Positions 10,511-29,352 are shown, numbered from the stretch's first letter. The stretch is 50,835 bases of DNA from an uncultured bacterium (GCA_965372335.1 CBDVBX010000001.1:1-50835); one strand, 5' to 3'. Made by a program: numbers and translations. Notes: a model not told the origin generated them from the letters alone.

Positions 10511-11475
10511 CGTCGCGACGCGAGCAACTGCCATCGTTGGTCGACGCCGTGGGCAACACACCGCTCATTGAACTTTCCTTTCTCGAGGGCGTGCCCAAAC
10601 ATACCCGGCTGTACGCCAAGTTGGAGACGGCCAATCCCAACGGTTCTCTCAAGGACCGTCCAGTCGCCCGCATGATTACAAACGCGATCGCCGCCGGCCA
10701 TCTCGACGACGGCCGGCGGCTTTTGGACAGCACCTCGGGTAACGCCGGTATCGCCTACGCCGCTTTTGGGGCCGCGTTGGGCGTCGGCGTCACGCTGGTC
10801 GTTCCCGGAAACGCCAGCCGTGAACGCATCGATCGCATTCGCGCCCACAACGCAGAGGTCATCTTAACCGACCCGATTGAAGGCTACGACTTCGCAATTC
10901 AGGAAGCGCACCGGTTGGCGGATCTCGAACCGACGCGGTACTGGTATTGTAATCAGTACGACAACCCGGATAATTGGCAAGCCCACTACCGTGGAACCGG
11001 GCAGGAGATTATCGAGCAGTTGGAGAAAAACTCAGTCGACCCGCCGGATGCGTTCGTGTGTGGAGTCGGAACCGGCGGCAGCATCACCGGGGTCGGCCGG
11101 CTGCTCCGCGAGGCGAACCCAGACACAACAATCATTGCCGTGATACCCGAAACTTTTCCTGGTATCGAGGGTCTCAAACCGCTTGGCCACCCGGGCGATT
11201 TCGTTCCCGGTATACTTGACCACTCGTTGTTGGGTGAATCGATGATCGTCACGATCGAGGAGTCGTTGCAGTGGTGCGAGCGGCTGGCGCGCGAAGGTAT
11301 TTTTGTCGGCCCATCATCGGGGGCTTACGTTCATGCGGCCGTCACGGTGGCGGCGACCGGGCGGCATCGTCGCATTGTCACGATTCTGTGCGATACCGGA
11401 GATCGTTATTTCTCGACCGGGATGTGGTCGAATAGAAGCATCGAAATGACATCGGAAAAACGGCGAACAGGATGA
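10507..11475 (+). CDS. cysM: PLP-dependent cysteine synthase, CysM/CysK family (probably the CysO-thiocarboxylate-dependent type)
   Basis: 322 aa. NPNGSLKDRP carries the PLP lysine. STSGNAGIA and GVGTGGSITG are also present. ATGA overlap with the preceding E1 fusion gene. Confidence 0.85.
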   Translation: MTSRREQLPSLVDAVGNTPLIELSFLEGVPKHTRLYAKLETANPNGSLKDRPVARMITNAIAAGHLDDGRRLLDSTSGNAGIAYAAFGAALGVGVTLVVPGNASRERIDRIRAHNAEVILTDPIEGYDFAIQEAHRLADLEPTRYWYCNQYDNPDNWQAHYRGTGQEIIEQLEKNSVDPPDAFVCGVGTGGSITGVGRLLREANPDTTIIAVIPETFPGIEGLKPLGHPGDFVPGILDHSLLGESMIVTIEESLQWCERLAREGIFVGPSSGAYVHAAVTVAATGRHRRIVTILCDTGDRYFSTGMWSNRSIEMTSEKRRTG

Positions 11476-11523: not shown

Positions 11524-12168
11524 TTAGTTATCGCCGTCTCGGAACTCGATGTGCCAGTGGGTGCCGTCGCAGAAAGGCTTGTTCTTCGAACCGCCGCACC
11601 GGCACAGGGTGAAATGCTCTGTCGATGCGCCTTCGCCGCGTTCGGTGTCGACGAGCTCAGGACCACCGGTGACGACATACGGCCCGTCCTTCGACACGAA
11701 GATACCCGGTTCGCGGTCCTGGTCGCGGTGCTCGGTTCCGCCAATGGAGTGGCTGAGCGCTCCGGATGGACATCTTTTGACCGTCGCCAGCAGTTCTTCT
11801 TTGGATGCAGAGTCGGGGTGGATCCAGGGTTCTTCCTTCATCCGGAAAACCGCCGGTAGGCCGTCGGTACAGCGGCCGGCGTGTGCGCAGATGCCGCGGT
11901 TGTCGTGGACCGTGACCTGCTCGCCTTGGTAGCTGTCCCTCTTGTCGAGGCGGCCGTCGGTTATCTTCTCACTGTTGAATCCGTTCTTGGCGTGGGTCCC
12001 GTCACAGAACGGCTTGTTGGCCGATCCCCCGCAGCGGCAAAGGGCAATCTTCGGTTTGGTCTCGAGAGAACTGCCTATCGAGTTGGACAGGTTCTCTAGA
12101 TCGTTGACGAGGTAGGGACCGTTTTCAGAGGGGGTAATAGAATGCTTTTTCTTGTCGCTGGAACTCAT
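11524..12168 (-). CDS. CDGSH-type iron-sulfur protein with two CDGSH domains flanking a ferredoxin-like Cys cluster
   Basis: CRCGGSANKPFCDGTH and CRCGGSKNKPFCDGTH are two C-x-C-x2-S-x3-P-x-CDG(S/T)H motifs. Between them lies ICAHAGRCTDG...KRCPSGA. Confidence 0.85.
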   Translation of the reverse strand: MSSSDKKKHSITPSENGPYLVNDLENLSNSIGSSLETKPKIALCRCGGSANKPFCDGTHAKNGFNSEKITDGRLDKRDSYQGEQVTVHDNRGICAHAGRCTDGLPAVFRMKEEPWIHPDSASKEELLATVKRCPSGALSHSIGGTEHRDQDREPGIFVSKDGPYVVTGGPELVDTERGEGASTEHFTLCRCGGSKNKPFCDGTHWHIEFRDGDN

Positions 12169-13090: not shown

Positions 13091-14359
13091 TTACGTCGCG
13101 GCTTGCGGGGCGTCGGCGTCGCCCGGGCGTGTGCGCGGCTCCGGCCCGGCAGGCGGCGGAGAGGCGGCGTCCGAGCGGACGTCGTCCCACGGCGGAAGGA
13201 CCTTGAACAGAACGTAGAGGATCAAAAACGGCAGGAGCATCAACGCGAGAGACACGAGCAACCCTTCGATACCAAAGAAGCTCATCTTGTAGACGGTAAG
13301 CCCCCGGAAGCTCTTGGAGAACAGTTGGCCTCCGACCACCACGTTCCAGCGTGTTGTGAAGATTCCCATCTGGACCAGCAGCGCCGCCACGAAGTAGACC
13401 AGCTTCCTGACTTCCGCTGGGGATTTGAATATCTTGACCGCGGATATCGCAAACAGCGGCACAATCATCCCCAACAACAGTTGAATGACGACCAAGCTCA
13501 CAAACAGCTTGCTCGCCACGAGTTCCGATATGATTTTTATGGACTCCTCGGATTCATAAACGCGGTGGATGAAGTCGAGCGCCTCCAACGAGAAGTCGAC
13601 GATCATGACATAGAACAAAAAGCTCGCAAGTTTGTTGAGGCACAACATGTCAATCGTCTTACCGCGCAGGGGCGTCACTATCATATAGATGAGCAGCACC
13701 ATGGCGACTCCCGACACGATCGCCGAAAACAGAAACACGATCGGCATCAGCACGCTCGACCACCACGGGTTCGCCTTGACAGAACCGAATATAAACCCGA
13801 CATACCCGTGCAACAGAAACGCCGACGGGATACCGACGATAGTAATGAGCTTGAGCGCTTTGCGGTCGAACGCCAGTGAGCGTTCGGAAATATCGTTTGA
13901 GAAAAGCGACATGAGCCGGCGCAGCCACTTCATCGGCCCACGGTCCCGTCGAGCCCACACGATCAGGTCCTTGCGGTAGTCGAACCAGACCTCCAGCAAC
14001 AGCACTGCCATGAGGTACCACGCGTACACGAAACCGAACATGGCCATGGCAGAACTGGTGTTTGGGGTGAGGAAGATCTCGAACGACCTCTCTGGATGCC
14101 CCAGATGCGCGAGCAGCGGCAGAGGCGCGACCAGCAAAAACGCCAGCGCCGTCAGCAGTGACATCCGATAGGTCGGCTGCAGCTCCTTGACGTTGAACAC
14201 CTTTACCAGGGACGCGAGGATGAACGCTCCCGCGACGAGGCCCGTTAGGTACGGATATATCACTACGAGGAGGCCCCAATGGAGCTCGATCTCGTTGGGG
14301 TAGATGTACCCGGATATCTTGTCCAGCAGTGGCTTCAGATGCTCGACGATCTCTTCCAA
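13091..14359 (-). CDS. NrfD/PsrC-family integral membrane quinone-interacting subunit
   Basis: About 10 predicted TM helices, with the HPERSFEIF motif region typical of the NrfD family. I favour the TTG start at 14359 (GGAGG about 10 nt upstream, immediately after the Fe-S gene stop). The track ORF starts at 14431, but those extra 24 codons overlap the Fe-S gene. Confidence 0.8.
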   Translation of the reverse strand: MEEIVEHLKPLLDKISGYIYPNEIELHWGLLVVIYPYLTGLVAGAFILASLVKVFNVKELQPTYRMSLLTALAFLLVAPLPLLAHLGHPERSFEIFLTPNTSSAMAMFGFVYAWYLMAVLLLEVWFDYRKDLIVWARRDRGPMKWLRRLMSLFSNDISERSLAFDRKALKLITIVGIPSAFLLHGYVGFIFGSVKANPWWSSVLMPIVFLFSAIVSGVAMVLLIYMIVTPLRGKTIDMLCLNKLASFLFYVMIVDFSLEALDFIHRVYESEESIKIISELVASKLFVSLVVIQLLLGMIVPLFAISAVKIFKSPAEVRKLVYFVAALLVQMGIFTTRWNVVVGGQLFSKSFRGLTVYKMSFFGIEGLLVSLALMLLPFLILYVLFKVLPPWDDVRSDAASPPPAGPEPRTRPGDADAPQAAT

Positions 14360-14360
14360 A

Positions 14361-15170
14361 TTAATTGACCTCCATGTCGAGGTGCGCGTAGATGACTTTG
14401 GGTTCGGTGTTGTGAGCCGGCTTGAGCACACCGATCCGATTCATGCGCTTGAACCTCGCTAGCGGGCTGGCCTTTTTCTCCATATCCCCGAACACCCGTG
14501 CCTGCGTGGGGCACACCTCGACGCAGGCAGGCTTGAGGCCCTTCACCAGGCGGTGATAACAGAAGGTGCACTTCTCGGCGGTGTGAGTCTCGGGGTGCAG
14601 AAAGCGAGCGCCGTACGGACACGCCTGGATGCAGTACCGGCAGCCGATACAGTAGTCGGCATCGACCAGGATAACGCCGTCGGGCGACTTGAACGTCGCA
14701 CCTACCGGACACACCTGTACGCAGGGCGGGTTGTCACACTGGTTGCAAAGTTTGGGAACAAAGAAGGACCTGACGATTTCCCGTTCGCGCGGCTCGTAGT
14801 TGAAGCTGTCGATGGCGCCGTTGGGGCTGTCCACGATCGTCTGGCCGTCGACCATGACGCGGTAGCGCTCCACCCATGTGCGGAAGAAGAACGGTTCGCG
14901 CGGAACGTTGTTTTCGTTTTTACACGCCTCGACGCACCGCCCGCAGCCGATGCACTTGCTGATGTCGATCCCCATCCCGTAGTAGTGCTCGCTGGGTTTG
15001 TAGTCCCCGATGATCAAATCGAGGATCTTTTCCTGCTTGTCCTTGGCGAACAGATAGCCGGGCAACAGAAGCGATGCGAAGGCCAGCGTCAAGTTTTGTA
15101 GAAAACGGCGCCGACCCGGTTTGTTGTTTTGCTCCTGCTTGCTGATCTTCTTTTCTCCGCCTCCAGACAC
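14361..15170 (-). CDS. Tat-exported 4x[4Fe-4S] ferredoxin subunit (NrfC/PsrB/DsrO/ActB-like)
   Basis: Twin-arginine signal GRRRFLQNLTLAFASLLL. Four Cys clusters: CIGCGRCVEAC, CNQCDNPPCVQVCP, CIGCRYCIQACP and CTFCYHR...CVEVCP. The likely start is GTG at 15170 (GGAGG upstream, 1-nt overlap with the cytochrome gene's stop). The alternative is ATG at 15209. Confidence 0.85.
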   Translation of the reverse strand: MSGGGEKKISKQEQNNKPGRRRFLQNLTLAFASLLLPGYLFAKDKQEKILDLIIGDYKPSEHYYGMGIDISKCIGCGRCVEACKNENNVPREPFFFRTWVERYRVMVDGQTIVDSPNGAIDSFNYEPREREIVRSFFVPKLCNQCDNPPCVQVCPVGATFKSPDGVILVDADYCIGCRYCIQACPYGARFLHPETHTAEKCTFCYHRLVKGLKPACVEVCPTQARVFGDMEKKASPLARFKRMNRIGVLKPAHNTEPKVIYAHLDMEVN

Positions 15171-15961
15171 TAGTGAACCTCCGGTAGGTGTGGATAGTGA
15201 CATTGCCAACAGACGTAACCCTCGCCGTGATCGGCCATGTCGATCTTCTTTATGTCCTCGTCTCCGGGCCCCTCGGGATCGTGGCAGCCGCCGCAGAATT
15301 CCCGATCGGCCGGACGTGTCGGCTTAAACCGCCTTGGGTTGATCTTGTGCTCCTCTGGTGCCTCGTGGCACCGGCCGCACGGCACGTACACGTGGGAGGA
15401 CAGCGCCTTGGTGCGGGCGATAGTCGCGTGGCACGCCTGGCACTCTCCCGGCGTCTCGGGCGGTATGGGATCATGGGCGTCGTGGCACGAGATGCACGGC
15501 TTGATCGGGTTGTGCGACGCGGAGATGATCTGCGGAAACCCGGTCGGCCGGGAGGGCAGGTACTCGTGACACAGCGGACAGTAGCCTCGTTCACGGGGCG
15601 CGCGGAGTTCGACGTCCCCGTCCTCGGCGACGTGTTCCACCGCGGGGCCGTGGCAGACCTCGCACGAGAGGTTCTTATGGTAGCCGCCGGCCTTTGTCTC
15701 GACCACGTCGTCGTGACATTCCACGCACACCTGTTTTCCCGCGTATTTGATCTCCAGCGCTGCTGCATCCGCCAATGCCGACCCTCGATAGTGGCCGTAC
15801 TCGCCAAAGTCGCTGGGCACGACGTACATCCGGAACACGATGAGCGCCGCGATGACGATGACCGCCAAAATGGGCAGGCGGCGCATCTGCTCCGGGACAC
15901 GGGACCAGAACGACCGAGCGGGATCAAGGAAGTCGTCCGTTTTCAATACAGAATCCCCCAC
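15170..15961 (-). CDS. Membrane-anchored octahaem c-type cytochrome
   Basis: One N-terminal TM helix (LPILAVIVIAALIVF). Eight CxxCH motifs: CVECH, CEVCH, CPLCH, CISCH, CQACH, CGRCH, CGGCH and CWQCH. Confidence 0.85.
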   Translation of the reverse strand: MGDSVLKTDDFLDPARSFWSRVPEQMRRLPILAVIVIAALIVFRMYVVPSDFGEYGHYRGSALADAAALEIKYAGKQVCVECHDDVVETKAGGYHKNLSCEVCHGPAVEHVAEDGDVELRAPRERGYCPLCHEYLPSRPTGFPQIISASHNPIKPCISCHDAHDPIPPETPGECQACHATIARTKALSSHVYVPCGRCHEAPEEHKINPRRFKPTRPADREFCGGCHDPEGPGDEDIKKIDMADHGEGYVCWQCHYPHLPEVH

Positions 15962-16273
15962 TGTCTAGCAAATCTTCCGGAATCCAAGGACTCACAAGAA
16001 AAGTGGGTCTATTATTCTGATATATCTGACGTTCGTCAAGCGTAAAATAGCACAAGCAGGTGGGAGATTTGGGGGCTGCCCAAGTTTCCGGGGCGATACC
16101 GACTCCGCCGTGGGACTTACCATTTACTCAGGAAGAATCTTCGCGGTCGGAGACTATACGGATAGCCCGCGAGACGATCATTCTGGACGGTCACATCGAC
16201 GCGAGCTATGCGTCCAGGGCATTTCGGTGAAGCGGGTGACGCTTCGAGCAGAATGCAGTACTCGGCTATCGCG

Positions 16274-17638
16274 TCAAATGACCCCTTGGTCAATCATCGC
16301 GTCCGCGACCCTCATGAAACCCGCAATGTTCGCGCCGCTCACGTAATTACCCGGAGCGCCGAACTCTTCCGCTGCGTTCAAGCAGGCCTCGTGGATGTTC
16401 TTCATGATCACCTTGAGTCGGTTGTCCACCTCCTCGCGCGTCCAGGCAAAACGCATGCTGTTCTGGGCCATCTCGAGACCCGAGACCGCGACACCGCCGG
16501 CGTTGGCCGCCTTCCCCGGAGCGTATAGGATGCGCCGGTCGGTGAACGCATTGATTGCATCCGGCGTTGCGGGCATGTTGGCGCCTTCGCAGACCAACTG
16601 GACGCCGTTCTGCAACAAGTTCTGCGCATCTTTACGGTTGATCTCATTCTGGGTCGCGCACGGGAAAGCACAGTCCGCTTTGCGGGCCCAGAGCGGATTC
16701 TCGTCCCAACCTCCGATTTCCGCGGAGGTAAACTCTGTGTCGGGATACCTTTCTGCGAATTCACGGATACGGCCTCTATGCAAGTTCTTCAAATCCTTCA
16801 GCCACTCCAGCTTTTCACTGTCGACACCATCGGGATCATAGATATAACCGCTCGAATCCGAGAAAGTCACTACCTTCGCCCCGAGATCGATTAGCTTTTC
16901 TATAACAAACTGTGCAACCTTGCCGCTCCCGGAAACCAGGCAGGATTTGCCTTCGAGCGTCTGATCTCGGGTAGCGAGCATTTCCGTGGCGAAGTACGCG
17001 ACACCATAACCGGTTGATTCGAGACGCATGACGGAGCCACCCCAGTTGATACCTTTCCCCGTCAGCGCTCCGGTAAATTCGTTCCGAAGCTTGCGATACT
17101 GACCGAACAGGTAACCGATTTCGCGTCCGCCTACACCGATATCCCCGTCCGGGATGTCCGTATTCGGTCCGACGTGACGATGCAGCTCGTTCATAAAGCT
17201 CTGGCAGAAACGCATGACTTCGAGATCGCTCTTTCCCTTCGGGTCGAAGTCGGACCCTCCCTGCGCCGCACCCATCGGCAACGTTGTAAGACTGTTCTTG
17301 AAGACCTGTTCCAAGGCAAGGGATTTGAGGATGCTCTGGCCGACCGAAGGATGGAAACGAAGACCGCCTTTGTACGGTCCGATGGAACCATTCATTTCGA
17401 CGCGATAACCGCGGTTCACTTGTACACGGTCGGCGTCGTCCAACCAGGCAACGCGAAAAGTGATCGTCCGTTCGGGCTCGATGATCTGCTCCAGGATCTT
17501 TGCCGTCCTGTAATGAGGATAACGCTCCAGGACGGGGCTCAACGACTCGGCCACGTCTTGGACCGCCTGGTGGAATTCCGGTTCAGCGGGATTCTTTGAT
17601 TTTACCTCAGCCAACAGTTTCTGAACATTATAAGTCAT
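16274..17638 (-). CDS. gdhA: NADP-type glutamate dehydrogenase
   Basis: 454 aa. GPYKGGLRFHPSV, GAAQGGSDFDPKGKS and GSGKVAQ are present, and the protein looks like hexameric GdhA over its full length. Its start overlaps the upstream stop as ATGA. Confidence 0.95.
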   Translation of the reverse strand: MTYNVQKLLAEVKSKNPAEPEFHQAVQDVAESLSPVLERYPHYRTAKILEQIIEPERTITFRVAWLDDADRVQVNRGYRVEMNGSIGPYKGGLRFHPSVGQSILKSLALEQVFKNSLTTLPMGAAQGGSDFDPKGKSDLEVMRFCQSFMNELHRHVGPNTDIPDGDIGVGGREIGYLFGQYRKLRNEFTGALTGKGINWGGSVMRLESTGYGVAYFATEMLATRDQTLEGKSCLVSGSGKVAQFVIEKLIDLGAKVVTFSDSSGYIYDPDGVDSEKLEWLKDLKNLHRGRIREFAERYPDTEFTSAEIGGWDENPLWARKADCAFPCATQNEINRKDAQNLLQNGVQLVCEGANMPATPDAINAFTDRRILYAPGKAANAGGVAVSGLEMAQNSMRFAWTREEVDNRLKVIMKNIHEACLNAAEEFGAPGNYVSGANIAGFMRVADAMIDQGVI

Positions 17639-20600
17639 TTGTCAGCTCCCTTTCCTGATTCGTGCACGTGTTCGTCCGGCAGCTGCTGCGTCTCTTTTTC
17701 AGTCGTCCTAATTTTTAGTGGGCGTGCGGCGTCCGTGACTGCGTTGATTTTTGAAGCGTAGCTGGTCTTTTTTGCGACATCTTCATCGGTAATAATATGG
17801 AAATCCAGCAGTCCTCCGGACCGGTATCCCGTCCGAAGGTAATTGATTTCATCAAGGCAGAGGCTCCAACCCTCGAGCCAATGCACAAGGTCCTTGCGTT
17901 GGGATGCCGTACCTCTGAAGTGGATCAACATGTCGATATCGCTCGCCGGTCCCGCCGTGCCGTTTTTCGTGCTTCCAAACACGTAAATACCCTCAACCCC
18001 AAACTCTTCGGGATCCAGCTGAAAGGCGATCTGCTCGGCCATGCGATAACGCCAGCGCCAATAATTCTCCGGATGACCGTCTTCGAATGTATCCCCTTCC
18101 TCCGGGGACCCGATATCCTGCTCGGGATCCGCCAGCAGGCCCACTGCCTCGCCGAGTTCAGCGTTCATCAATACCTGCATCATTTTCCCGTCTGTGGCGC
18201 TTGCGACATCAATCACCCGAATCACATCGGCGAGATACGCATATTCGGGAAGTAGTTCCGGGAGAATGTTTTCCGAGCGTAGGAGAACGCGCTCGTTGAA
18301 GCATGTTTCCTCATCATCCGGGAACACAGGAAGGTAGTTAATGCCCGATTGCACGAGGTCCTGCAGGAAATGGACTCCGATAGACAAGGCGCTGTCTTCG
18401 GTGTTATCTGGCTGCAGCAAATCGACCAGGACTGCCGCGTTTTTGAAATCGTTGCACTTTAGGTCCACGCCGGCCCGGTGATCGCCGCGGTCACTCCAAC
18501 GACCGGGCCGCATGAGGATGAACTGCCGCTTGGGAAGCAACTCGTTCAACTTCGCCACCGCCTTGCCGACGGCCTGTCGCTGCGCTGGTTCTTCTAGCGC
18601 GTCGAGCGCCGCGGCTCGCAAGTAGACAATGTGGGTGATGTTAGAAACCCATCCGTTCGATACGTAGCGGTTCGCCGAGAATATCAACTTGTCTTCGGTA
18701 ATGTCCTTCGGAATGGGAGCCGGCCGCGGTGCACGGGCAAGGGCCTGGGGGCAACATTGCAAAAGATAAATGTGCTCTCCGTCGGAGGCGAACTCGATCT
18801 CCACGGGCACGCCAAACTTTTCCTCGAGTGTTCGCAGAAGATCCCGGATTTGTGTCCCAAAGGGCCCCCGTGTGATCAATCCATCGAAGGTCACCACGAG
18901 ATCATCGTTCTCGAGGTTTGACTTCCCCTCATCCAGCGGTTGGACCTGGCCGTTTTTATACACAGACACAACTTGTTCCGCGTTGGGATACTCCTCGCCG
19001 AAGCTCCTCATCAGCTCGCTCAGCTCGAGCGTTTGCAAACGGTTGGTCTCCAAGTTGATCACGTCGATACTCCTGGGGGCGCTGCGGAAGCTATCTTCCC
19101 TTACCCCATTTACCTGGATCGACGGCCGGCCCGGCACGACCAGCACAGGATACTCTTCGCCGGTGCGGTCCGAGGCGCGGGTTCCGAGTCCGGGGACGAT
19201 GTGGACCATGCCGTCCTCTCCCGTAATACCGGGCAACCATTGAAAGTCGTTCCGACTTCGGGCTACCCCCGAATAGGCAGGCAGAAAACATGGACCGACC
19301 CGGGTTCCCACTACCTCCTGAATCATGACGCCCATTTGCTCGCTGAACTCCAGCAGCCCACGGTCCGCCCTGTATTCGATCGGATCCGGGCCGAAGTTCG
19401 ACGCGTACACCTCGGCCACCGCGCGCATGAGATCGCGGAGGCGCTCCGCCCTGGTTCCCTGGTTCCCCAAGAATACGCTCTTGTATTTACCGCGGAAAGC
19501 TGACCCCGTTCGGTCTTCCAGTAGCGACGAACTGCGCACGACCAAAGGGCTGTCTTCGAAGTCGTCCAGTGCCATCGACAGCCCGTTGGTCATTTCGGGT
19601 GGATGAACCGTCTGCTGGAACATTTCAATGACGTGTGGGTATTCTAAACGGACCCTTTCGATATCCTTGTACTTCTGCTCAACAATCTCATCCATATTGT
19701 TGTAATGTATGAATTCGAGCATCATGTCCGAGGAGATGTACCAGGTCTTGGGGATCCGGAACGGTGAGTCCGCCCTGAGGCCACCGTTCGTTTTTCTCAA
19801 GATCTGCGACGCCAGGAACAGGCCTGCGCTCTTGCCTCCGAGCTTTCCGTGGCTCTCCGCGGAGCAGATCACCTTCTGGAGAAGCTGGTAGAGATCTTCG
19901 ATGTCCACAACATCCTTCGCGAGGTTGATGTACTCCATCCTGTCCGAAAGAATGCACTCGATGAGAAGGACTTTCAGGCCCCTCGCGAGGGGATACCGGT
20001 TATTCGTTTCTTCATGAGTTGTGAGGATATGCCGTCGGAGGCCGCTGGCGACATCGGAGTGGGGTAGGTGACGGCGCACGGTTCGGAGCAATCCGCCGAG
20101 CTTATCCTCCTGAATCCACATCTGGACGCGGGAAAGAACTTCCTCATTGCTCAGATGTTCGGCGGCGATTCGAAAAATTTTTTCTGTAGATTCGGTGGAG
20201 AAGTCCAGTGGACGGCGCGGCAGTTGCTCCCTCGCTTCGTCGCCGTAGACATTGTACCCCAGCGTGCCCCGGTGTTTGTCCACCCGCCTCAACGCCTCTG
20301 CCTCTTCCACTCCGCTCCAGCACAGGTGGTTGAGCATTTTGTTGGACAGTCTGAGAAAAAGGGCGTTATCCGTCTGACGAATGAGGTCCAGCACGGCCTC
20401 CCAGTCGCCTCTTCGGCTTTCTGAGCGATCCCGGTCGGCGATTTTCCACTCCTGAAAAACGTGCTTCATCTTCTTGTATGTCAGGAAGTGGTTGATCCGG
20501 TCCGCGATGGTCTCGATGAGTTTTTTCTCCTCCTTGAGGAAGGGACCGATGTCCGCCGCGGGCATTTCGCGGGTGTAGTACACGCCGATCGTGCCCAAAT

Positions 20601-20877
20601 TTTGATCCTGGTGTACGATGGGCGCGGTCAGTTTCCAAGGCGTCTCCTCGAAGCCCTGGGAACGGTATTCCCTGCCCTCCAATGTGATCGTAGCCTCACA
20701 GATGTCGGGGAATTGCCATCCCGGAGGAATGGCCTTAATGACACACTCGCAAACCTGATCGATGTCCGCGTCTGGTTCCCTCAGTGTTTCTTCAATGGCG
20801 TATAAGCACGTTAGCTCCTTGGCTCGTTCCGCAAGGGCTTCCAGCAATCTAATCGCTGACTGAGTTTGCTCTTTCAT
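17635..20877 (-). CDS. Multidomain protein: N-terminal CLY-type (GAF-like) sensor module, PEP/pyruvate-binding ATP-grasp domain (PPDK_N), a conserved C-terminal module, and a Pol-beta-type nucleotidyltransferase
   Basis: 1080 aa. LVVRSSSLLEDRTGSAFRGKYKSVF and VEIEFASDGEHIYLLQCCP are PPDK_N hallmarks. GIYVFGSTKNGTAGPASDIDMLIHF is the GSx(n)DxD nucleotidyltransferase motif. The N-terminal ELTCLYAIEE...GPFLKEEKKLIETIA is homologous to a module in the kinase at 31116-32891. Confidence 0.8.
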   Translation of the reverse strand: MKEQTQSAIRLLEALAERAKELTCLYAIEETLREPDADIDQVCECVIKAIPPGWQFPDICEATITLEGREYRSQGFEETPWKLTAPIVHQDQNLGTIGVYYTREMPAADIGPFLKEEKKLIETIADRINHFLTYKKMKHVFQEWKIADRDRSESRRGDWEAVLDLIRQTDNALFLRLSNKMLNHLCWSGVEEAEALRRVDKHRGTLGYNVYGDEAREQLPRRPLDFSTESTEKIFRIAAEHLSNEEVLSRVQMWIQEDKLGGLLRTVRRHLPHSDVASGLRRHILTTHEETNNRYPLARGLKVLLIECILSDRMEYINLAKDVVDIEDLYQLLQKVICSAESHGKLGGKSAGLFLASQILRKTNGGLRADSPFRIPKTWYISSDMMLEFIHYNNMDEIVEQKYKDIERVRLEYPHVIEMFQQTVHPPEMTNGLSMALDDFEDSPLVVRSSSLLEDRTGSAFRGKYKSVFLGNQGTRAERLRDLMRAVAEVYASNFGPDPIEYRADRGLLEFSEQMGVMIQEVVGTRVGPCFLPAYSGVARSRNDFQWLPGITGEDGMVHIVPGLGTRASDRTGEEYPVLVVPGRPSIQVNGVREDSFRSAPRSIDVINLETNRLQTLELSELMRSFGEEYPNAEQVVSVYKNGQVQPLDEGKSNLENDDLVVTFDGLITRGPFGTQIRDLLRTLEEKFGVPVEIEFASDGEHIYLLQCCPQALARAPRPAPIPKDITEDKLIFSANRYVSNGWVSNITHIVYLRAAALDALEEPAQRQAVGKAVAKLNELLPKRQFILMRPGRWSDRGDHRAGVDLKCNDFKNAAVLVDLLQPDNTEDSALSIGVHFLQDLVQSGINYLPVFPDDEETCFNERVLLRSENILPELLPEYAYLADVIRVIDVASATDGKMMQVLMNAELGEAVGLLADPEQDIGSPEEGDTFEDGHPENYWRWRYRMAEQIAFQLDPEEFGVEGIYVFGSTKNGTAGPASDIDMLIHFRGTASQRKDLVHWLEGWSLCLDEINYLRTGYRSGGLLDFHIITDEDVAKKTSYASKINAVTDAARPLKIRTTEKETQQLPDEHVHESGKGADK

Positions 20878-22627
20878 AGCAGATCACCCCCCGGCTACTC
20901 GTACCGTCCACTTTGACATGGAGCGGCTCATTCAACGTGACGTGACGCACGAATTGTGATTCGCGGATTTCTTTCTGGCGTTCCAGCCAATCCCAATTGA
21001 CGGGATACCTCTCGGTTTTGTCCGTTGAAAAATACAGAATCCGCAGGCACGTAACGTTGTGGAAGAAATGCGATCCCTGGCTCATGTCCACGCTCATATC
21101 GGACGAGGAGGCTTCGACGACGACCTTGGCGCCGGACACTTGCCCCCAATTAACGGGAATTCCCAGCCATGGATCGGAGGTCCCGAGACGCCCAAGCACC
21201 ACCAGAGCATAGGGACGACCTGCTTTGAGAAGCTGCCGGTTCATCTCGTCCAGTTCCGCCGCGATCAGCCACGAGTCTTTAGCGGAGAAAACGTCGGGTT
21301 TCACATAAACAATGTCTTTAATGCAGTCCAGCTGTCCGTTACCCAAAACCTGCTCGGAAGCTACGAATACGTGGTCTCCGCGGAGTTCTTGTTCGTTGAT
21401 TTCCACGCGGTCATCGGATATGAACATCGGTCGAACCTGGAGGAAACCGAACCGCGCGCTGTTGCTCGTACCCTGACCGAAGTCTACGGCAAACTCGATC
21501 TCCACAGGATTCCCCAACTCGTCCTCGCAAACAGTCAAAAGATTTCGGACCAGGTCATTCAATGGGATTTCGTTGAGTTCCAATAAGGGACAAAAATCCA
21601 AGACTCGTGCTCCCGGCCTGGCCGTGCCTGGAGTCAGCCGTTCGGTTTGGGGATCGTAGGTCGAAGCCATCTTCCCGAGTACACCATCTTCCTCCGCGTG
21701 GCGGAGATTCCCGTCGAATAGGTATTCTGTTTCCTGGATGGGGTCGTAGGTAGGGGGCTTGCCCATGTTCACGGACCAGAATTGAGTCTGAGTTTGCGTG
21801 AGAAGCTCTTTCATGGAACCGAAAGGAGGTTTTACTTTGGGATAAGCTGGGCAGTAGGTCCACGTCCTGCCTCCGTCTACGATAGTCTTTCCCAATCCCA
21901 GCGCCAGGCTCACCACACCGTGCTCGGGCTGTGTATATCCCAGCGAGTAAAAATTGTACGAGCGGGCCACACCGGAAACATTTGGGTAAAACCGATCGCC
22001 ACGGCGGAGGCCCACGACTTCTTGAATCATGATGGCCATTTTCTCATCTCCGTGCGACCGCCCCAGAGCCTGACGGTAGCTCTTGGCGTCTCGAGAAAAA
22101 GTCGAAGCATAGACAAATTTGACCGCTTCCACCAACGTGCGAAGACGTGCCTCCGCGCTGAACTGGTTGTTGGGTACCATTTTTGTGGCGTAAACACCCG
22201 CCAAGGGCTCTTGAAGGGCATCCTCCAGAAGGCTGGACGACCTTACCGCCAGAGGAGCATGCACGTCGGAGATGAGTTTTCTTAGTTCATCGACGAGCTC
22301 CGTCGGTAGCTCCGCCCTTTGAAAGGCGTTCGCCATGTGTCGATCCTTAGTATCTGACAGGGCAACGTCGTAAAGGCGATTCTTCTCCATGAATAGATCG
22401 AACCAGTCGGTTGCGATTACCCAAAACCACGGGATGTCCACTGCGATGGAGGGAAACGCGTCCTTGTCAAGCCGGGTTTTCAGGATGTGTTCGATCCGCA
22501 CCAGCCCCTGCGCTTTCCCCCCGATTTCCCCCTTCCCAACCTGGGTGAAGAACTTCGCAGTTTGGGCAGTACTCCCGTCGGAGCCACCATCACCTCGTGG
22601 AAATGAGCCGCTTTCTCTGTTCACCAT
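20849..22627 (-). CDS. PEP/pyruvate-binding (PPDK_N ATP-grasp) domain protein, a paralogue of the downstream gene
   Basis: GGKAQGL, LAVRSSSLLEDALQEPLAGVYATK and VEIEFAVDF are present. The C-terminal module GRLGTSDPWLGIPVNWGQVSGAKVVVE...SQGSHFFHN parallels GRWSDRGDHRAGVDL...IGVHFLQD in the 1080-aa protein. I prefer the ATG at 22627. The track start at 22705 is a GTG directly abutting the upstream stop. No canonical GGxTSHAA swivel motif is seen. Confidence 0.75.
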   Translation of the reverse strand: MVNRESGSFPRGDGGSDGSTAQTAKFFTQVGKGEIGGKAQGLVRIEHILKTRLDKDAFPSIAVDIPWFWVIATDWFDLFMEKNRLYDVALSDTKDRHMANAFQRAELPTELVDELRKLISDVHAPLAVRSSSLLEDALQEPLAGVYATKMVPNNQFSAEARLRTLVEAVKFVYASTFSRDAKSYRQALGRSHGDEKMAIMIQEVVGLRRGDRFYPNVSGVARSYNFYSLGYTQPEHGVVSLALGLGKTIVDGGRTWTYCPAYPKVKPPFGSMKELLTQTQTQFWSVNMGKPPTYDPIQETEYLFDGNLRHAEEDGVLGKMASTYDPQTERLTPGTARPGARVLDFCPLLELNEIPLNDLVRNLLTVCEDELGNPVEIEFAVDFGQGTSNSARFGFLQVRPMFISDDRVEINEQELRGDHVFVASEQVLGNGQLDCIKDIVYVKPDVFSAKDSWLIAAELDEMNRQLLKAGRPYALVVLGRLGTSDPWLGIPVNWGQVSGAKVVVEASSSDMSVDMSQGSHFFHNVTCLRILYFSTDKTERYPVNWDWLERQKEIRESQFVRHVTLNEPLHVKVDGTSSRGVICYERANSVSD

Positions 22628-22705
22628 AGCTTTCGACCTGTCTCCTGAAGGTAAGGGATCGCAGCGGTTATTTCGCGTAGCTATCACCCGAAACGTTTGT
22701 GGCAC

Positions 22706-24295
22706 CTACGCGTCCAGGATCTCCTGCGCTTCCATTTCATCGACATCCTTGATGTATTTGATCCCGCTAATCCTGGCCGCATCTTGTGTCAGTGCCGCGA
22801 CGTCATCCCGGCTAATGTAGCTCAGATCAAACTTGCGCGCTCCACTCATCAACTGGCGCAACCCCTGCGCGAGGCGCTCGTAATACGTGTAGAGACCGAT
22901 CGCTCCCGTCGGCAGCTTTTCGAATTCCTCGTCGCCAAGCTCCTTGCGCAGCTCGGGGGCCGTGACAAATATCTCGTCCTTGGTTTTACCGAAACGCTCC
23001 ACGTACACAGGAAGCTCTTGCGCATCTATGGTTTTTCCTATGGTCTTTCCCACCATGGCAGCGGCAATGGGAGAGCGGGCCATGCCCACGAGTTTTACGA
23101 AAGGCGCACCAAGAGCGAGGGCTTTGAAAATGTGGTCTTCGAACGTGAATCCGCCGGCTGGCGCCAAAGCCGGGACGTATTCGCCCCTGTCGGCCAGACG
23201 TTTTGTGTACTCATAGAGCAATGAATGCAGTTCAACGGGCGGCATTCCCCATTCGTTCATCATTCGCCAAGGACTCATGCCCGTTCCACCTCCGGCACCA
23301 TCAACCGTAAGGAGATCGATTCCATACTTGGACGAAAACTTCACCGCCCGCGCTAGATCGGCGGGCCGGTAAGCCCCCGTTTTCAGGAACACGTATTTAG
23401 CGCCCGCGTTGCGCAATTCTTCCACCCGCTGGGCAAAGGACTCTTCGTCCACCATGCCGACACGTGAGTGCCGCTCGAATTCCTTGAACGATCCGCGCTC
23501 GAACGCCGCGATGACGTGAGGATCCGTGGGATTCGGAAGTACGACGTACCCCCGCTCGTACAATAACTGGGCCTTTTCGAGGTCCGTTATTTTCACCTCG
23601 CCACCGATGTTTTTTGCGCCCTGGCCCCATTTGATCTCCACGATTTCCACACCGAGTTCACGAATGGCGTATTCCTGTACGCCAAGCCTGGTGTCTTCCA
23701 CATTCGCCTGGACGATTATGGCGCCGTAGCCGTCGTGCTGGTGATCCTGGTATAACTTGATCCTTCTTTTGAGGTCTACCGTATCGAGTATTTCACCGTT
23801 CTTGAGTCGCGCTTCGGGATCCATGCCGACCACGTTCTCCCCGATGGTGAGTCCCGTGCCGGCCAGTGCCGATCCGATCGCCAGACCCTCCCAGTTATTT
23901 TTGGCGATATTCGTAGAACCGATGCCCGGAATGATCCACGGATACCGGAACTTGATGCCGTTGTCCCTGCCGAAACGCACTTCGAGATTCACATTGGGGA
24001 AAATGGCTTTGTCCGAGTCTGCCTCGATTCCGTGGGCTCCGACCGCGGTACCCATAATGTTGAAGTGCGAGTAGTCCACGGGATACACTTTTTCCGATGC
24101 GGTGGTAATCACACCGAACGGCTGCGGATAGATCACCTCGTGGCCTCGGAAAGCGGACTTTCCGATCTCGCACATCCCCACGCAGCCGTCTACGCAGGTG
24201 ACACACATGCCGGAGCCCGGCGTGACCGATCCTTCGGTCCTGTTCTTGGTCAGAGTTGCGGCAGAAGAGTTTACTCTCGACAATGTCTGAAACAT
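22706..24295 (-). CDS. FMN-binding glutamate synthase family protein (GltB central/FMN domain only, archaeal-type split subunit)
   Basis: 529 aa. N-terminal Cys cluster CVTCVDGCVGMCEIGK. TIM-barrel FMN region with LTVDGAGGGTGMSPW and APAGGFTFEDHIFKALALGA. No amidotransferase or GXGXG domain is fused. Confidence 0.85.
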   Translation of the reverse strand: MFQTLSRVNSSAATLTKNRTEGSVTPGSGMCVTCVDGCVGMCEIGKSAFRGHEVIYPQPFGVITTASEKVYPVDYSHFNIMGTAVGAHGIEADSDKAIFPNVNLEVRFGRDNGIKFRYPWIIPGIGSTNIAKNNWEGLAIGSALAGTGLTIGENVVGMDPEARLKNGEILDTVDLKRRIKLYQDHQHDGYGAIIVQANVEDTRLGVQEYAIRELGVEIVEIKWGQGAKNIGGEVKITDLEKAQLLYERGYVVLPNPTDPHVIAAFERGSFKEFERHSRVGMVDEESFAQRVEELRNAGAKYVFLKTGAYRPADLARAVKFSSKYGIDLLTVDGAGGGTGMSPWRMMNEWGMPPVELHSLLYEYTKRLADRGEYVPALAPAGGFTFEDHIFKALALGAPFVKLVGMARSPIAAAMVGKTIGKTIDAQELPVYVERFGKTKDEIFVTAPELRKELGDEEFEKLPTGAIGLYTYYERLAQGLRQLMSGARKFDLSYISRDDVAALTQDAARISGIKYIKDVDEMEAQEILDA

Positions 24296-24323
24296 GGCGT
24301 TCCGCTCCTTTTCGCAGATGCTC

Positions 24324-25022
24324 CTATTTTCCGGGGATTTGTTGTTTACTTTTCACAATTTCACAGGCCACACAGGGATCCATGTAGCACATCATATCGT
24401 CGAAGCTATTCTTTTCGAGGCACGGCGGTGCCAGGTTGGCACAGCCTCCGCAGACCGCTTTGTCCGGCTCCGTATACGTACACCGGAGAGTACAGACCGG
24501 ACAGACATACATGCAGGCGCCGCACAAACGGCACTCCTCCGACTTGATGTCGAAGGGGGTGCCAATGCTGCGGTGTTCTCCGCGGCCGCGGAAACCGATG
24601 GCTTTGGCGACCATCTGCTCTTCACACATGCGTACGCAAAGACCGCAGAGAATGCAGTCTTCGTATTCCTGTTTGAACCTTTGCGTGCGAACATCGTGTT
24701 TCGCCGCCAGATCTTGAATCACTTTTGATTGCGGGCACGATGCCAGCAAGAGTTCGAGGATCATTTTGCGCGCTTTCACCACTCGAGAGGACGCGGTCCT
24801 GACGGCCAGACCTTCTTGTACCGGGTGAGTGCAAGAGGTGACCAGTTTTGCGTTTTCCCCTTTCCCAACCTCCACCACACAGAGCCGGCATGCACCGTAG
24901 GGTGAAAGACCTTCCATGTGACAAAGAGTGGGGATGGAAAAGCCCAGGAACTGGGCAGCTTCCAGGAGGCTGGTCCCCTTCTCCACGGTTACATCCACAC
25001 CGTTGATTTTGAGGGTAATCAC
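24324..25022 (-). CDS. 2Fe-2S plus 4Fe-4S ferredoxin protein (like the N-terminal part of NuoG/HydA) with a Cys-rich tail
   Basis: MITLKINGVDV...CHMEGLSPYGACRLCVVEV is the plant-type 2Fe-2S fold of NuoG/HydA N-termini. CILCGLCVRMC and CRLCGACMYVCP are ferredoxin motifs. The tail adds CGGC...C...C...CVAC. 4-nt overlap with the NuoF-GltD gene. Confidence 0.8.
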   Translation of the reverse strand: MITLKINGVDVTVEKGTSLLEAAQFLGFSIPTLCHMEGLSPYGACRLCVVEVGKGENAKLVTSCTHPVQEGLAVRTASSRVVKARKMILELLLASCPQSKVIQDLAAKHDVRTQRFKQEYEDCILCGLCVRMCEEQMVAKAIGFRGRGEHRSIGTPFDIKSEECRLCGACMYVCPVCTLRCTYTEPDKAVCGGCANLAPPCLEKNSFDDMMCYMDPCVACEIVKSKQQIPGK

Positions 25023-28000
25023 GCGCTCTGCCTCCCAGTTTCGGTTACTGTTTGTTTTTCTTTCTCGTTACGGGTGAATTCGAGATCGCATCGCAAACAC
25101 CTCAACGACTCCCGACGAGCTTCTGCCTGGGACAGGGCCACCTCCACCTCGGCGAAGTTCCGTCTACGCCATTCCGCCGGAGCACGGGGCGTTTCAGACC
25201 GGTCGCCGCCCAAGGCGGCTTCGTCCACCATCGGTTCCACATACACCTGGGGCAGTCTGGCGAACATAGGTTGAAGCAAGGGTTCTTTTTTGAGAAATCG
25301 CTCAATAATAACGGCCGCTTTTTTCCCGTCTGCGATGGCCTCGACCACTGTGTTGGGGCCGCGGACAACATCCCCGGCGGCGAAAACCCCCGGCCGGTTC
25401 GTCTGCATCGTCGTGGGATCCGTCCGCACGGTGTTCCAGGGCGTCGTCTCGATCTGACTCGACTTCGCGGGTGTGATCGCGTCGATGCCCGAATCCTCGC
25501 CGATCGCGACGATAAGCGTGTCGAGGTCGATGACGTGCTCCGTGCCGTTGATCGGCATCGGTCTGCGTCGGCCGCTCTCGTCGGCTTCGCCCAGCTCGTT
25601 CCGGATGCATTCCAGCCCGGCCAGGCGGCCATTGTTATTGACTATTCTGACCGGAGTAACAAGGGTTTCGATGCGGATTCCCTCCTGATCGGCGGCTTCG
25701 ATCTCCTCGGCGAAGGCGGGCATCTCGTTCCGCGTCCTCCGGTAAAGAATGGTGACCTCGTCCACGTCCTTGAGGCGAAGGGCCATACGGGCCGCGTCGA
25801 TCGCCGAATTTCCGCCTCCGATGACGCCCACCTTTCCCTTGGCCAGCTGTCGCTCTTGTAAGTTAAAAGCCTTTAGAAACTCTATGGAGGGATACACTCC
25901 CTCAACGTCCTCGTTTTCCAGGCGCAGAGGTTTGCTCTTGTGCGCGCCGATGGCCAGGAGAACGGCTCCGTATCCCGATTCGAATAGCTCGTCGATATTA
26001 ATGTCCCGGCCCAGCGCAGTTCCGCATTTCACGGTGATGTTCTCGTTGAGCAAGGCGTCGATTTCTTTCTCGATCACCTCACGAGGTAGACGATACGAGG
26101 GAATGGCGCACGTCAGCATGCCGCCGGGTTCTTTCTCCGCCTCGAACACCGTGACCTCGCACCCTTTGAGGGACAAGTAATGGGCCGCAGTCAGCCCGGC
26201 AGGTCCCGCGCCGATAATCGCAATTTTGGGCGGGGCACCGTCGCTCCACTCCTGCTTGACCGGTTGGTACGCGGAGGGATCGATCCGATCGGTGATGAAA
26301 CGTTTCAACGCCCGTATGGCCACGGGGTCGCCTCCGGCCGCACCAGCCCGGCATTTCGCCTCACACGGATGGTGGCAGACTCGGGCACAGATGGAAGGAA
26401 ATGGATTGGGTTCCCGGATAACGCGGTAGGCCTCGTCGTACTCCCCGTGCCCGATTAGGGCTACGTATCGCCACGCCTCGGTCCCCAAGGGGCACGCGGA
26501 CTGGCAGGGCGCGCCCACTAATTCCTTGCAAACGAAAGCGTCGCACCGTTTGTCTATGATGTGCCGTTCGTACTCTTCGCGAAAGTAGCGCAGCGTGCTG
26601 AGCACGGGATTGGGCGCAGACTGTCCCAGACCGCACATCGTCGTGTCCTTGACCACGTGGGCCAACTCTTCCAGGAGGTCGAGTTCCTCCAAGGTCGCCT
26701 CGCCCTTGGAGATGTCGTCGAGGATCTCGTACATCCGTTGTGTACCCTTCCGGCAGGTGAAGCACTTCCCACACGATTCGTCCTTGAGAAAACCCATGAA
26801 GTATTTGGCCACGTCCACCATGCAGGTGTCCTCGTCCATAACGATCATCCCGCCCGATCCCATGATGGAACCGGCCTTTATCAGGCTGTCATAGTCGATA
26901 GGCAGATCAAACATGCGAGCAGGGATACACCCACCTGAGGGCCCCCCCGTTTGAACCGCCTTGATCTTCGTGTTTCCGGACGCACCCCCTCCGATGTCGT
27001 AAACCACTTCCGAAATCTTTATGCCCAGCGGGACCTCCACCAGGCCTGTGTTCTGTATTTTTCCCACCAGGGAAAAGATCTTAGTGCCCGTGTTCCCCGG
27101 TACGCCCACCCTCGCGTAAACGTCCGCTCCCCCATCAATGATCACGGGAATGTTAGCCAGCGATTCCACGTTGTTAATGCAGGTGGGATGCCCTCCGATG
27201 CCCTTTTCTATCGGATAGGGAGGACGCTGGCGGGGTTCACCTGTGAAACCTTCGACGGATTTGATGAGCGCCGTCTCCTCCCCACACACAAAGGCGCCCG
27301 CCCCTCGTACGATTGTGATGTCAAAGTCGACCCCGGTGCCGAGGATATTCTCCCCCAGCAAGCCCAGGTCCCGAGCCTGACGGAGGGCAATGATGGTGTG
27401 CTTGATAGCGATGGGATACTCGCTGCGCACGTAGATGTAGCCCTGGGTTGCGCCGATAGCAATCCCTCCGATGAGCAGACCTTCGATGATGGCGTGAGGA
27501 TTGCCTTCTAGGAGACTCCGATCCATATAGGCGCCGGGATCCCCCTCGTCGGCATTGCATACTATGTATTTCTGCTCTGCACCGTTTCCGGAAGCCCGCG
27601 CGAGCTCCCACTTCTTTCCGGTCGGGAAACCGGCTCCTCCCCGTCCCCGTAGACCTGATTTTTTGACTTCCTCTACGATCCATTCGGGATCGATCCGTGA
27701 CAGCACTTTCTCGGCGGCCGCATATCCACCCACCTCGATATAATTGATGATTCGGATGGGATCGAGCTTCTGGTTGCTCCCCAGTATGGTGCGCTTCTGC
27801 TTCTTGAAGAAGGGAATGTCGTCCTGGCTGTGGTACTGCCTTTTGTCGTGCGGGTCTCTGTAGATGAGACTTTCGTCGACGAAACCGCCCACGGCAGCGT
27901 CGATAACTCTGGGAACGTCCTCCATCTCGAGCTTTGGATAGAGATGCCGGCCCGGTTCCACGAGGACGAATGGATCCATCTCGCAGAATCCCTGGCAGCC

Positions 28001-28204: not shown

Positions 28205-28252
28205 CGAAACACCTCTCTATGTAACGCCCATACAACCCACACAATCAGTGGA

Positions 28253-29104: not shown

Positions 29105-29151
29105 GTCTTGCGCGTTCCTTGTGTTTTAGGGTTTGTTCTGGTTCCTCGACG

Positions 29152-29352
29152 TCAACGTTCCTCAACATATTCTTCGCAGTGCCATACCCCACCCTCCGGC
29201 TTCGGGAAGAGGCAGGTTTGGCGGTTCGCACAGTTCACGCACAACCCCTTGCAGTCTCCTGCGTATTCCGCAGGACTTTTCGTGCCAGGGCGCTCACCTT
29301 GGGATTGATCCCTGTCGTCCTTTCGGAATCTAGAGGGATGGCGAACCACCAT
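29152..29352 (-). CDS. Small (66 aa) Cys-rich protein, putative first gene of the sigma-54 operon
   Basis: The ATG ORF ends in GDCKGLCVNCANRQTCLFPKPEGGVWHCEEYVEER (C-x4-C-x2-C-x6-C ... WHCEEY). It lies 47 nt upstream of the NuoE-like gene. The SD is weak, so whether it is truly coding is unproven. Confidence 0.45.
   Translation of the reverse strand: MVVRHPSRFRKDDRDQSQGERPGTKSPAEYAGDCKGLCVNCANRQTCLFPKPEGGVWHCEEYVEER

Follow-up and report, generated by a model that had tools for sequence, protein, structure and literature searches.

The action of GlnE on glutamine synthetase (GS) is an established case of covalent control in bacterial nitrogen assimilation. Glutamate dehydrogenase (GDH) connects carbon metabolism with nitrogen metabolism and, in the sediment phyla in which the proteins described below occur, is the key enzyme for the fermentation of amino acids. 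GS has GlnE, but we know of no described enzyme dedicated to the covalent modification of a bacterial GDH. A reversible inactivation in vivo was reported for the GDH of Bacteroides fragilis in the 1980s; a literature search on this subject yielded nothing pertinent. The subject of this work is a pair of paralogous proteins, SMALL and BIG, encoded next to gdhA in a 50,835-nucleotide stretch of DNA from an uncultured bacterium (GCA_965372335.1, CBDVBX010000001.1:1-50835). The term “window” refers to this whole stretch. In the reading that we favour, with a probability put at roughly 0.45, SMALL and BIG would form an enzyme under the control of a sensor, and its task would be the reversible modification of GDH through AMPylation and/or phosphotransfer.

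Several described systems resemble the pair in part. GlnE and GlnD join a Pol-beta nucleotidyltransferase (NTase) to sensory parts and reversibly modify a nitrogen-assimilation protein. The resemblance of SMALL/BIG to them is one of function, not of membership. BIG has one minimal NTase domain in place of a pair of them, two PPDK-type ATP-grasp domains and a novel C-terminal module are added, and the presumed target is GDH, whereas GlnE and GlnD act on GS or PII. The signature domains of GlnE/GlnD (PF03710, PF08335, HD, ACT) were not detected. NTases of the minimal type (MNT), such as those of the MntA/HepT systems, have the hG[GS] and DxD motifs and a third Asp, like BIG, and the MntA type AMPylates a protein partner. 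Unlike these enzymes, BIG carries its NTase at the end of a 1080-residue protein, with an invariant tail (TDEDI...K.SYA.KI.AVTD) and no toxin-antitoxin context.

The ATP-grasp domain is what SMALL and BIG have in common with phosphoenolpyruvate (PEP) synthase (PEPS), pyruvate phosphate dikinase (PPDK) and rifampin phosphotransferase (RPH). In SMALL and BIG, a module of 185-190 residues, here called the C-module, replaces the swivel and substrate domains of those enzymes. According to a preprint, VadK (Rv1127c) of Mycobacterium tuberculosis is a PPDK-derived, autophosphorylating protein that associates with metabolic enzymes (bioRxiv 10.1101/2025.10.30.685616). As presented there, VadK is a histidine kinase that evolved from a complete PPDK, whereas SMALL and BIG are without that His domain, form a paralogous pair and include an NTase. 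In mammals, GDH (Glud1) is AMPylated and inhibited by SelO (PMC12375108). SelO is an AMPylase with a pseudokinase fold, unrelated to the Pol-beta NTases, and its proposed site on Glud1 lies in an animal-specific antenna that is absent from bacterial GDHs. We rate the architecture, the domain and the presumed target of SMALL/BIG as new, and an NTase-based switch on a nitrogen-assimilation enzyme as a known kind of control.

Architecture and Conservation of SMALL and BIG

The pair, its domains and the adjoining gdhA gene occupy the following positions in the window.

20849-22627, minus strand: SMALL, PPDK_N ATP-grasp domain plus C-module, 592 residues (open reading frame and Pfam; more than 7900 homologues)
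21410-22528, minus strand: ATP-grasp domain of SMALL, with GGKAQGL, VRSSSLLED, MIQEVVG, VEIEFA and FLQVRPM (PF01326, E 1.2e-38, residues 60-432)
20852-21403, minus strand: C-module of SMALL, 184 residues, GRLGTSDPWLGIPV ... E ... SQGSHFFHN, with two invariant His
17635-20877, minus strand: BIG, 1080 residues, made up of sensor, helical domain, PPDK_N ATP-grasp domain, C-module and minimal NTase (open reading frame, Pfam, orthologue alignment)
20473-20877, minus strand: BIG residues 1-135, GAF-like sensor (weak PF01590 match and histidine-kinase homology)
19858-20430, minus strand: BIG residues ~150-340, conserved helical domain with the motif MLNHLCWSG (orthologue alignment)
18703-19845, minus strand: BIG residues 345-725, PPDK_N-type ATP-grasp domain (PF01326, E 4.7e-46)
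18133-18702, minus strand: BIG residues 726-915, C-module, a homologue of the SMALL C-module
17713-18069, minus strand: BIG residues 937-1055, minimal (MNT-type) Pol-beta NTase with invariant C-terminal tail (PF01909, structure model, Foldseek)
16274-17638, minus strand: gdhA, NADP-type GDH, the proposed target (NF006929, 710 bits; PF00208 and PF02812)

The NTase domain of BIG contains the motif FGSTKNGTAGPASDIDMLIHF, in which FGS-x10-DID, together with D1025, fits the pattern hG[GS]-x9-13-DxD plus a third carboxylate on an NTase fold. NTP_transf_2 (PF01909) matches residues 958-995 with 34.7 bits against a cut-off of 21 (E 2.5e-8), and the isolated domain is matched with E 6.5e-10. The only NTase families that match BIG are generic ones (PF01909, PF18765, PF22600), and the MntA model NF047752 gives 22.7 bits at a cut-off of 60. 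An AlphaFold model of residues 715-1080 was obtained with a predicted local distance difference test (pLDDT) value of 82. In Foldseek comparisons, the NTase is closest to minimal NTases (2rff, and the HEPN-MNT or MntA-HepT structures 8xeh, 7ae9 and 7bxo), followed by the small-molecule adenylyltransferases AadA, ANT and LinB, all in the same probability range of 0.85-1.0. Pfam scans of BIG, SMALL and their neighbours detected no HEPN (RX4-6H) partner or domain.

Conservation was counted in 77 species-level orthologues of BIG and 51 orthologues of SMALL. The original prediction, which was made from the sequence alone, depended on an intact NTase active site throughout the family, and this is what was found: G968, S969, D980 and D1025 occur in 77/77 orthologues and D982 in 76/77. 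The tail residues D1031, K1043 and D1049 are equally conserved.

The ATP-grasp domains of the two proteins are 31 % identical (E 3e-32), and both contain the catalytic motifs of PEPS and PPDK (GGK, VRSSxxxED, D/EIEF, QxRP) except at R709 of BIG. All 77 orthologues of BIG have K349, R448, E454, E695 and Q707, and in SMALL the equivalent residues vary little or not at all (K64 in 49/51). A profile built from the BIG alignment places VRSSSLLED and (D/E)IEF...LLQxRP on the corresponding segments of RPH-Lm (5HV6) and PEPS (2OLS). Searched against the Protein Data Bank (PDB), this profile found only the ATP-grasp domains of PEPS and RPH; sequence searches of the PDB with SMALL and BIG gave nothing at E <= 0.01.

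The remaining parts of a PEP synthase or dikinase could not be recovered. Neither the swivel domain PF00391 (GGxTSHAA) nor the TIM barrel PF02896 was found in BIG or SMALL, even in searches at E <= 10 with the C-terminal parts by themselves. PEPS equivalogs scored 15-48 bits against cut-offs of 598-1063. In the case of RPH, the ATP-grasp part alone can be aligned (residues 46-199 and 287-325 of 5HV1/5HV6), and NF041857 gives 23-31 bits against 999. The NCBIfam names PEPS, RPH and PigC were considered for the proteins and rejected, as they come from partial matches under threshold only.

Both C-modules are strongly conserved. In SMALL, R506, E531, Q543, G544, H546, H549 and N550 are present in 51/51 orthologues and S542 in 50/51 (residue numbers of SMALL follow the 618-codon reading frame described below), and in BIG, His836 is invariant (77/77). 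A profile-profile comparison with hhalign, based on 38 SMALL and 36 BIG sequences, identifies the two C-modules as homologous (probability 98.9 %, E 3e-17, 139 columns). A library-wide search placed the C-module in 1249 clusters at 50 % identity, in proteins of about 580, about 1000 and about 1520-1650 residues. In the best-scoring full-length matches, it sits at the C-terminus, except in SMALL+BIG fusions, where the first copy is internal.

The remote-homology search on this module, suggested together with the original prediction, led to no known family. The C-module has no Pfam match, either in SMALL or in BIG (residues 726-915). The AlphaFold model of the SMALL C-module (pLDDT 89.9) gave a top Foldseek match in the PDB with E 0.02 and a TM score of 0.29, among unrelated folds. 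A diverged swivel domain was considered as the origin of the C-module and rejected, as neither the Pfam search nor Foldseek on this model lends it support. In the model, the conserved His starts a helix behind a flexible loop. A His that opens a helix after a flexible loop is a typical phosphohistidine setting, which is a lead rather than a test.

The N-terminal sensor of BIG shows a weak similarity to the GAF domain (PF01590, E 6e-4, 20.8 bits, under the 22.4 cut-off), limited to the last third of the profile. It is more closely matched by residues 355-468 of a histidine kinase encoded nearby (35 % identity, E 9e-27). This kinase segment adjoins, on the C-terminal side, a weak GAF_2 match (281-346) and lies just before HisKA. 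Two cysteines of the sensor, C24 and C60, occur in 74/77 and 70/77 orthologues, and the motifs PPGWQYPDIC and GPFLKEE are conserved. The helical domain that follows has no Pfam match.

Most of the domain content had been anticipated. The original prediction named PPDK_N in both proteins, the absence of a swivel His and of a PEP-utiliser barrel, a second C-terminal module common to both, and the sensor and NTase at the two ends of the 1080-residue copy; all of these were recovered in the searches above, the sensor through the kinase homology more than through GAF. The retention of the NTase, ATP-grasp and C-module His residues makes it likely that BIG and SMALL are catalytic.

The BIG protein of the window departs from its orthologues at several conserved positions. 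The Arg of QxRP, present in 74/77 orthologues, is replaced by Cys709 (18751-18753). Cys is also found in P0001, which is 97 % identical to the window BIG, so the replacement is not a sequencing error. In the C-module, GRWSD takes the place of the GRWGS of orthologues, and a conserved Glu is replaced by Asp (S796D and E819D). BIG in the lineage of the window may be drifting towards a pseudo-enzyme. The motifs of the window SMALL are fully canonical, unlike those of BIG.

SMALL and BIG as One Functional Unit

Both proteins belong to large families. BIG has more than 5000 homologues that are 50-77 % identical over the full length, and the closest named relative of SMALL, at 78 % identity, comes from a Latescibacterota metagenome-assembled genome. 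Family members are named “pyruvate, water dikinase”, “PEP/pyruvate-binding domain protein”, “predicted nucleotidyltransferase” or “hypothetical” in databases. SMALL lies directly upstream of BIG in 60/71 loci with enough sequence. P0107 (1633 residues) and P0083 (1648 residues) are natural head-to-tail SMALL+BIG fusions, and further proteins of this type, about 1520-1650 residues long, contain two C-module matches. Judged from the fusions and the gene order, SMALL and BIG are one functional unit, which in some species is a single polypeptide.

The genes of the window are tightly packed. The longest open reading frame of SMALL spans 20849-22705 (618 codons), and the ATG at 22627 gives 592 residues. 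This ATG is taken as the real start, since it is preceded by an AGGAGA ribosome-binding site and agrees with the database gene call P0121. The reading frames of SMALL and BIG overlap by 29 nt. Inspection of the next junction showed the BIG stop and the gdhA start overlapping as ATGA at 17635-17638, just as had been predicted. In the relatives L001-L003, gdhA begins ~10-60 nt past BIG, judged by the ends of tblastn matches.

Genomic Linkage to GDH and a Metallophosphoesterase

The genomic context was studied in 80 loci from species-representative genomes; loci with enough flanking sequence are counted as eligible. In 49/66 eligible loci, a GDH gene immediately precedes the pair, less than 700 bp upstream and in the same orientation; 63/80 loci contain a GDH-family gene at some position. 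The upstream enzyme is a highly conserved 428-residue GDH of the hexameric type, with GdhA_Arch as its best NCBIfam match (485 bits). The loci span at least 10 phyla, with BIG proteins 46-54 % identical to that of the window, and the carriers include Zixibacteria, Acidobacteriota/Aminicenantes, Planctomycetota, Ignavibacteria/Melioribacter, Calditrichota, Cloacimonadota, Krumholzibacteriota, Gemmatimonadota, Eisenbacteria, GN15 and others. Unrelated surroundings, such as antibiotic-phosphotransferase loci, were also considered in the original prediction, and they are not the general setting of the pair.

In the clade of the window (L001-L003), the order is NuoE - NuoF/GltD - Fdx - GltB-like - SMALL - BIG - GdhA (type I). 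Here, gdhA lies directly downstream of BIG. When the 428-residue GDH was used as a tblastn query in the window, it matched gdhA only, with 31 % identity. Two neighbours, GdhA and a GltB-like enzyme, had been put forward as possible targets. The link to GdhA extends across the phyla listed above, whereas the GltB-like neighbour is limited to the window clade and to L014, in which it is farther off and on the opposite strand. Genomic linkage is the basis on which a covalent switch acting on GDH is proposed.

A third architecture, of ~1000 residues, consists of two receiver-like domains, a DUF5752-like region, PPDK_N and the C-module. This receiver variant stands immediately after type-I gdhA in L053, L076 and L046, and in L053 the full row is gdhA(I) - receiver variant - gdh(II) - SMALL - BIG. 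It is often followed by a metallophosphoesterase gene on the same strand (L076, L026). The regions concerned are as follows.

L076, 15555-20849: receiver variant
L053, 1998-6822: receiver variant
L046, 14029-18894: receiver variant
L026, 14938-18776: receiver variant

In L014 (5313-8410, minus strand), a 474-residue receiver-like/DUF5752-like protein is followed by a 552-residue protein with the GRLGS…GSHF/GTHF motifs of the C-module. The latter is not recognised by Pfam. The two genes are arranged divergently from gdh(II)-SMALL-BIG and apparently represent a split and highly divergent version.

A calcineurin-like metallophosphoesterase of ~287 residues (PF00149) is the second recurrent neighbour. 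Its gene is found directly downstream of BIG in 36/65 eligible loci, convergent in 31 and co-directional in 5, and it is present in 52/80 loci overall. In L014 and L001 (14753-15637 in L001), it directly follows type-I gdhA on the same strand. An example from the downstream position is given here.

L033, 7566-8429: metallophosphoesterase downstream of BIG

Besides GDH and the metallophosphoesterase, no recurrent neighbours were identified in the loci; there was no transporter and no further pathway enzyme.

Proposed Mechanism and Its Alternatives

In the mechanism proposed here, SMALL and BIG would be two subunits of one nucleotide-using regulatory enzyme dedicated to GDH. The GAF-like N-terminal domain of BIG would read a metabolic signal, and the same cue may also act through the kinase and the sigma-54 regulator encoded nearby. 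The PPDK-type ATP-grasp domains would bind ATP and pass a phosphoryl group to the invariant His of the C-module, placed in SQG-S-H-FFHN in SMALL and SxG-T/V-H-FF in BIG; alternatively, the C-module could hold the substrate. The MNT-type NTase would transfer AMP, or another nucleoside monophosphate, to a hydroxyl acceptor. The net outcome could be a reversible AMPylation and/or phosphorylation of GDH that switches the enzyme between active and inactive states, and the linked metallophosphoesterase could serve as the eraser in most genomes. In the organism of the window, SMALL would probably be the competent ATP-grasp subunit, and BIG would supply the sensor and the NTase, given that the window BIG deviates at conserved ATP-grasp and C-module positions and SMALL is canonical. 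A protein-directed regulator fits better than a pathway enzyme because of the sensor- and receiver-like fusions, the catalytic conservation, the tight, ancient GDH linkage, the paralogue beside type-I gdhA and the recurrent phosphoesterase. Each element of the proposal has a precedent, in the actions of GlnE on GS, MntA on HepT and SelO on mammalian GDH and in the PPDK-derived kinase VadK.

A number of observations weigh against a covalent switch on GDH. No GDH was seen within the fetched sequence of 17/80 loci. The metallophosphoesterase is mostly convergent with BIG instead of sharing a transcript with it, and tblastn found no copy of it within the 50 kb of the window. The window BIG has Cys for the QxRP Arg. 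The C-module has no similarity to any phosphohistidine domain that Pfam or Foldseek could detect, and for this reason its His may serve otherwise, for example in metal binding by the HxxH pair of SMALL. A literature search found no paper on any member of the SMALL/BIG family, nor anything pertinent on DUF5752 or on gene neighbourhoods that combine gdh with a dikinase and a phosphoesterase. The metatranscriptome evidence described below is weak, since it comes from assembled contigs with possible DNA carry-over. Above all, synteny is a functional link and not proof that GDH is the substrate.

The same genomic data can be read in terms of a small molecule, which we consider unlikely. SMALL and BIG would then be a dikinase and an adenylyltransferase that phosphorylate or nucleotidylate a metabolite of the glutamate/2-oxoglutarate node, e.g., a derivative of an oxo acid or an amino acid. 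The part of GDH would be to deliver the substrate or to draw it off, and hydrolysis of the product would fall to the metallophosphoesterase. With the exception of VadK, the characterised PPDK_N enzymes (PEPS, PPDK, RPH, PigC/RedH) do act on small molecules or glucans. The NTase fold of BIG also resembles AadA, ANT and LinB, all catalytic residues are conserved, and 2-oxoglutarate, like pyruvate, is a 2-oxo acid. However, no substrate domain of the kind represented by the RIF-binding domain or the PEP/pyruvate barrel can be recognised, and the recurrent neighbours are only GDH and the phosphoesterase. Fusions to sensor-like and receiver-like domains, as well as a paralogue beside type-I gdhA, are more typical of regulators.

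Less probable is a regulator that works without covalent modification, in which SMALL and BIG are an allosteric partner or scaffold of GDH and their ATP-grasp and NTase domains are mainly ATP/AMP (energy-charge) sensors. The near-absolute conservation of the NTase carboxylates and ATP-grasp residues in the orthologues of both proteins argues for catalysis, and the recurrent phosphoesterase suggests that there is a hydrolysable modification. Strong synteny with GDH is equally compatible with a non-covalent partner, the GDH of Thermus has regulatory partner proteins (GdhA/GdhB/APRTh), and the replacements R709C, S796D and E819D in the window lineage suggest that the loss of catalysis in one subunit can be tolerated.

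Lower again in probability is a modification directed at SMALL and BIG themselves or at another protein, with the adjacency to gdh reflecting nothing but co-regulation by nitrogen or carbon status. An MNT-type NTase usually has a tightly bound partner as its target, the SMALL+BIG fusions mark these two proteins as such partners, and the loci without gdh would be explained. Yet the order gdh-SMALL-BIG persists across phyla even though protein identities are as low as ~47-54 %, and the other GDH type likewise has a paralogous protein as its companion, which is hard to square with co-regulation alone. An ordinary PEPS or PPDK, or an RPH-like protein combined with an aminoglycoside-NTase-like resistance enzyme, as the source annotations and the partial NCBIfam PEPS and RPH matches far under cut-off would have it, is effectively excluded, because the defining swivel His domain and PEP/pyruvate barrel are missing, the NCBIfam scores reach 15-48 bits where cut-offs of 600-1700 apply, and the context is GDH and not resistance or gluconeogenesis genes.

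If SMALL and BIG do modify GDH reversibly, they would provide a second covalent switch in bacterial nitrogen assimilation. A great many proteins now wrongly annotated as “pyruvate, water dikinase” or “PEP/pyruvate-binding domain protein” would gain a function, and the C-module would be a new domain, standing behind a PPDK-type ATP-grasp in the place of the swivel phosphohistidine domain. A more general form of the proposal, in which bacterial GDH is under a widespread reversible covalent switch made up of an ATP-grasp with a novel His domain, an MNT-type NTase, a GAF-like or receiver-like sensor and a metallophosphoesterase, is doubtful. If true, it would amount to a “GlnE system for GDH” in at least 10 phyla of sediment and anaerobic bacteria. 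Even with another target, GDH, the paired ATP-grasp proteins, the NTase and the phosphoesterase make up a conserved module that is worth testing.

Gene Row, Regulation and Expression in the Window

The genes of the pair belong to a compact row on the minus strand, in the order NuoE-like, NuoF-GltD, ferredoxin, GltB-like, SMALL, BIG and gdhA. The genes upstream of SMALL were assigned by means of Pfam.

28253-29104, minus strand: NuoE-like gene
25019-28204, minus strand: NuoF-GltD fusion
24324-25022, minus strand: 2Fe-2S/4Fe-4S ferredoxin
22706-24295, minus strand: GltB-like flavin mononucleotide (FMN) subunit, 529 residues

This part of the operon (22706-29104) appears to encode an unusually composed, NADH/ferredoxin-linked glutamate-synthase-like complex. 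The GltB-like FMN subunit is without a glutamine amidotransferase domain. The order from NuoE to the GltB-like gene is identical in L001-L003, and related genes occur nearby in L014 and L019. No terminator was found on the minus strand after gdhA.

Just upstream of the NuoE-like gene, at 29152-29352 on the minus strand, there is a Cys-rich open reading frame of 66 residues (…GDCKGLCVNCANRQTCLFPKPEGGVWHCEEYVEER). It is probably a real small gene, since it is conserved in the same position in L001, with 69 % identity.

Two regulatory genes and a candidate promoter element are located upstream of the operon.

29767-31119, minus strand: sigma-54-dependent (NtrC-like) response regulator (Pfam)
31116-33281, minus strand: histidine kinase with a sensor domain of the same type as that of BIG (Pfam)
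29495-29510, minus strand: tentative sigma-54-like -24/-12 element TGGCACGCCCCTTGAT, intergenic, with one mismatch to TGGCAC-N5-TTGCW

The element is regarded as tentative because sigma-54 matches with one mismatch are not over-represented in the window. As the kinase and BIG have the same type of sensor, one kind of sensor may gate the operon at the level of transcription and BIG at the level of activity.

Sequences nearly identical to 15900-29300 were found in metagenomes from marine sediments and cold seeps. Together with the Latescibacterota relative of SMALL, they make a related sediment bacterium the probable source of the window. Near-identical pieces of gdhA, BIG and SMALL also turned up in two metatranscriptome assemblies from marine sediment, and one contig bridges the junction between the GltB-like gene and SMALL. 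The coverage is fragmentary, and the BIG/gdhA junction is not spanned by any metatranscriptome contig.

Other Features of the Window

Three further gene groups were observed in the window. At 8933-11475 on the plus strand, a ThiS-rhodanese-ThiF triple fusion (525 residues) overlaps a pyridoxal phosphate-dependent (PALP) enzyme, and this pair looks like a system for sulfur-carrier-protein-based thiolation or cysteine-type biosynthesis. Downstream of gdhA, at 13091-15961 on the minus strand, lies a quinone-interacting respiratory module composed of a multihaem cytochrome c, a 4Fe-4S protein and an NrfD-like membrane subunit. Near this module, at 11524-12168 on the minus strand, a CDGSH iron-sulfur protein is fused to a divergent 4Fe-4S domain.

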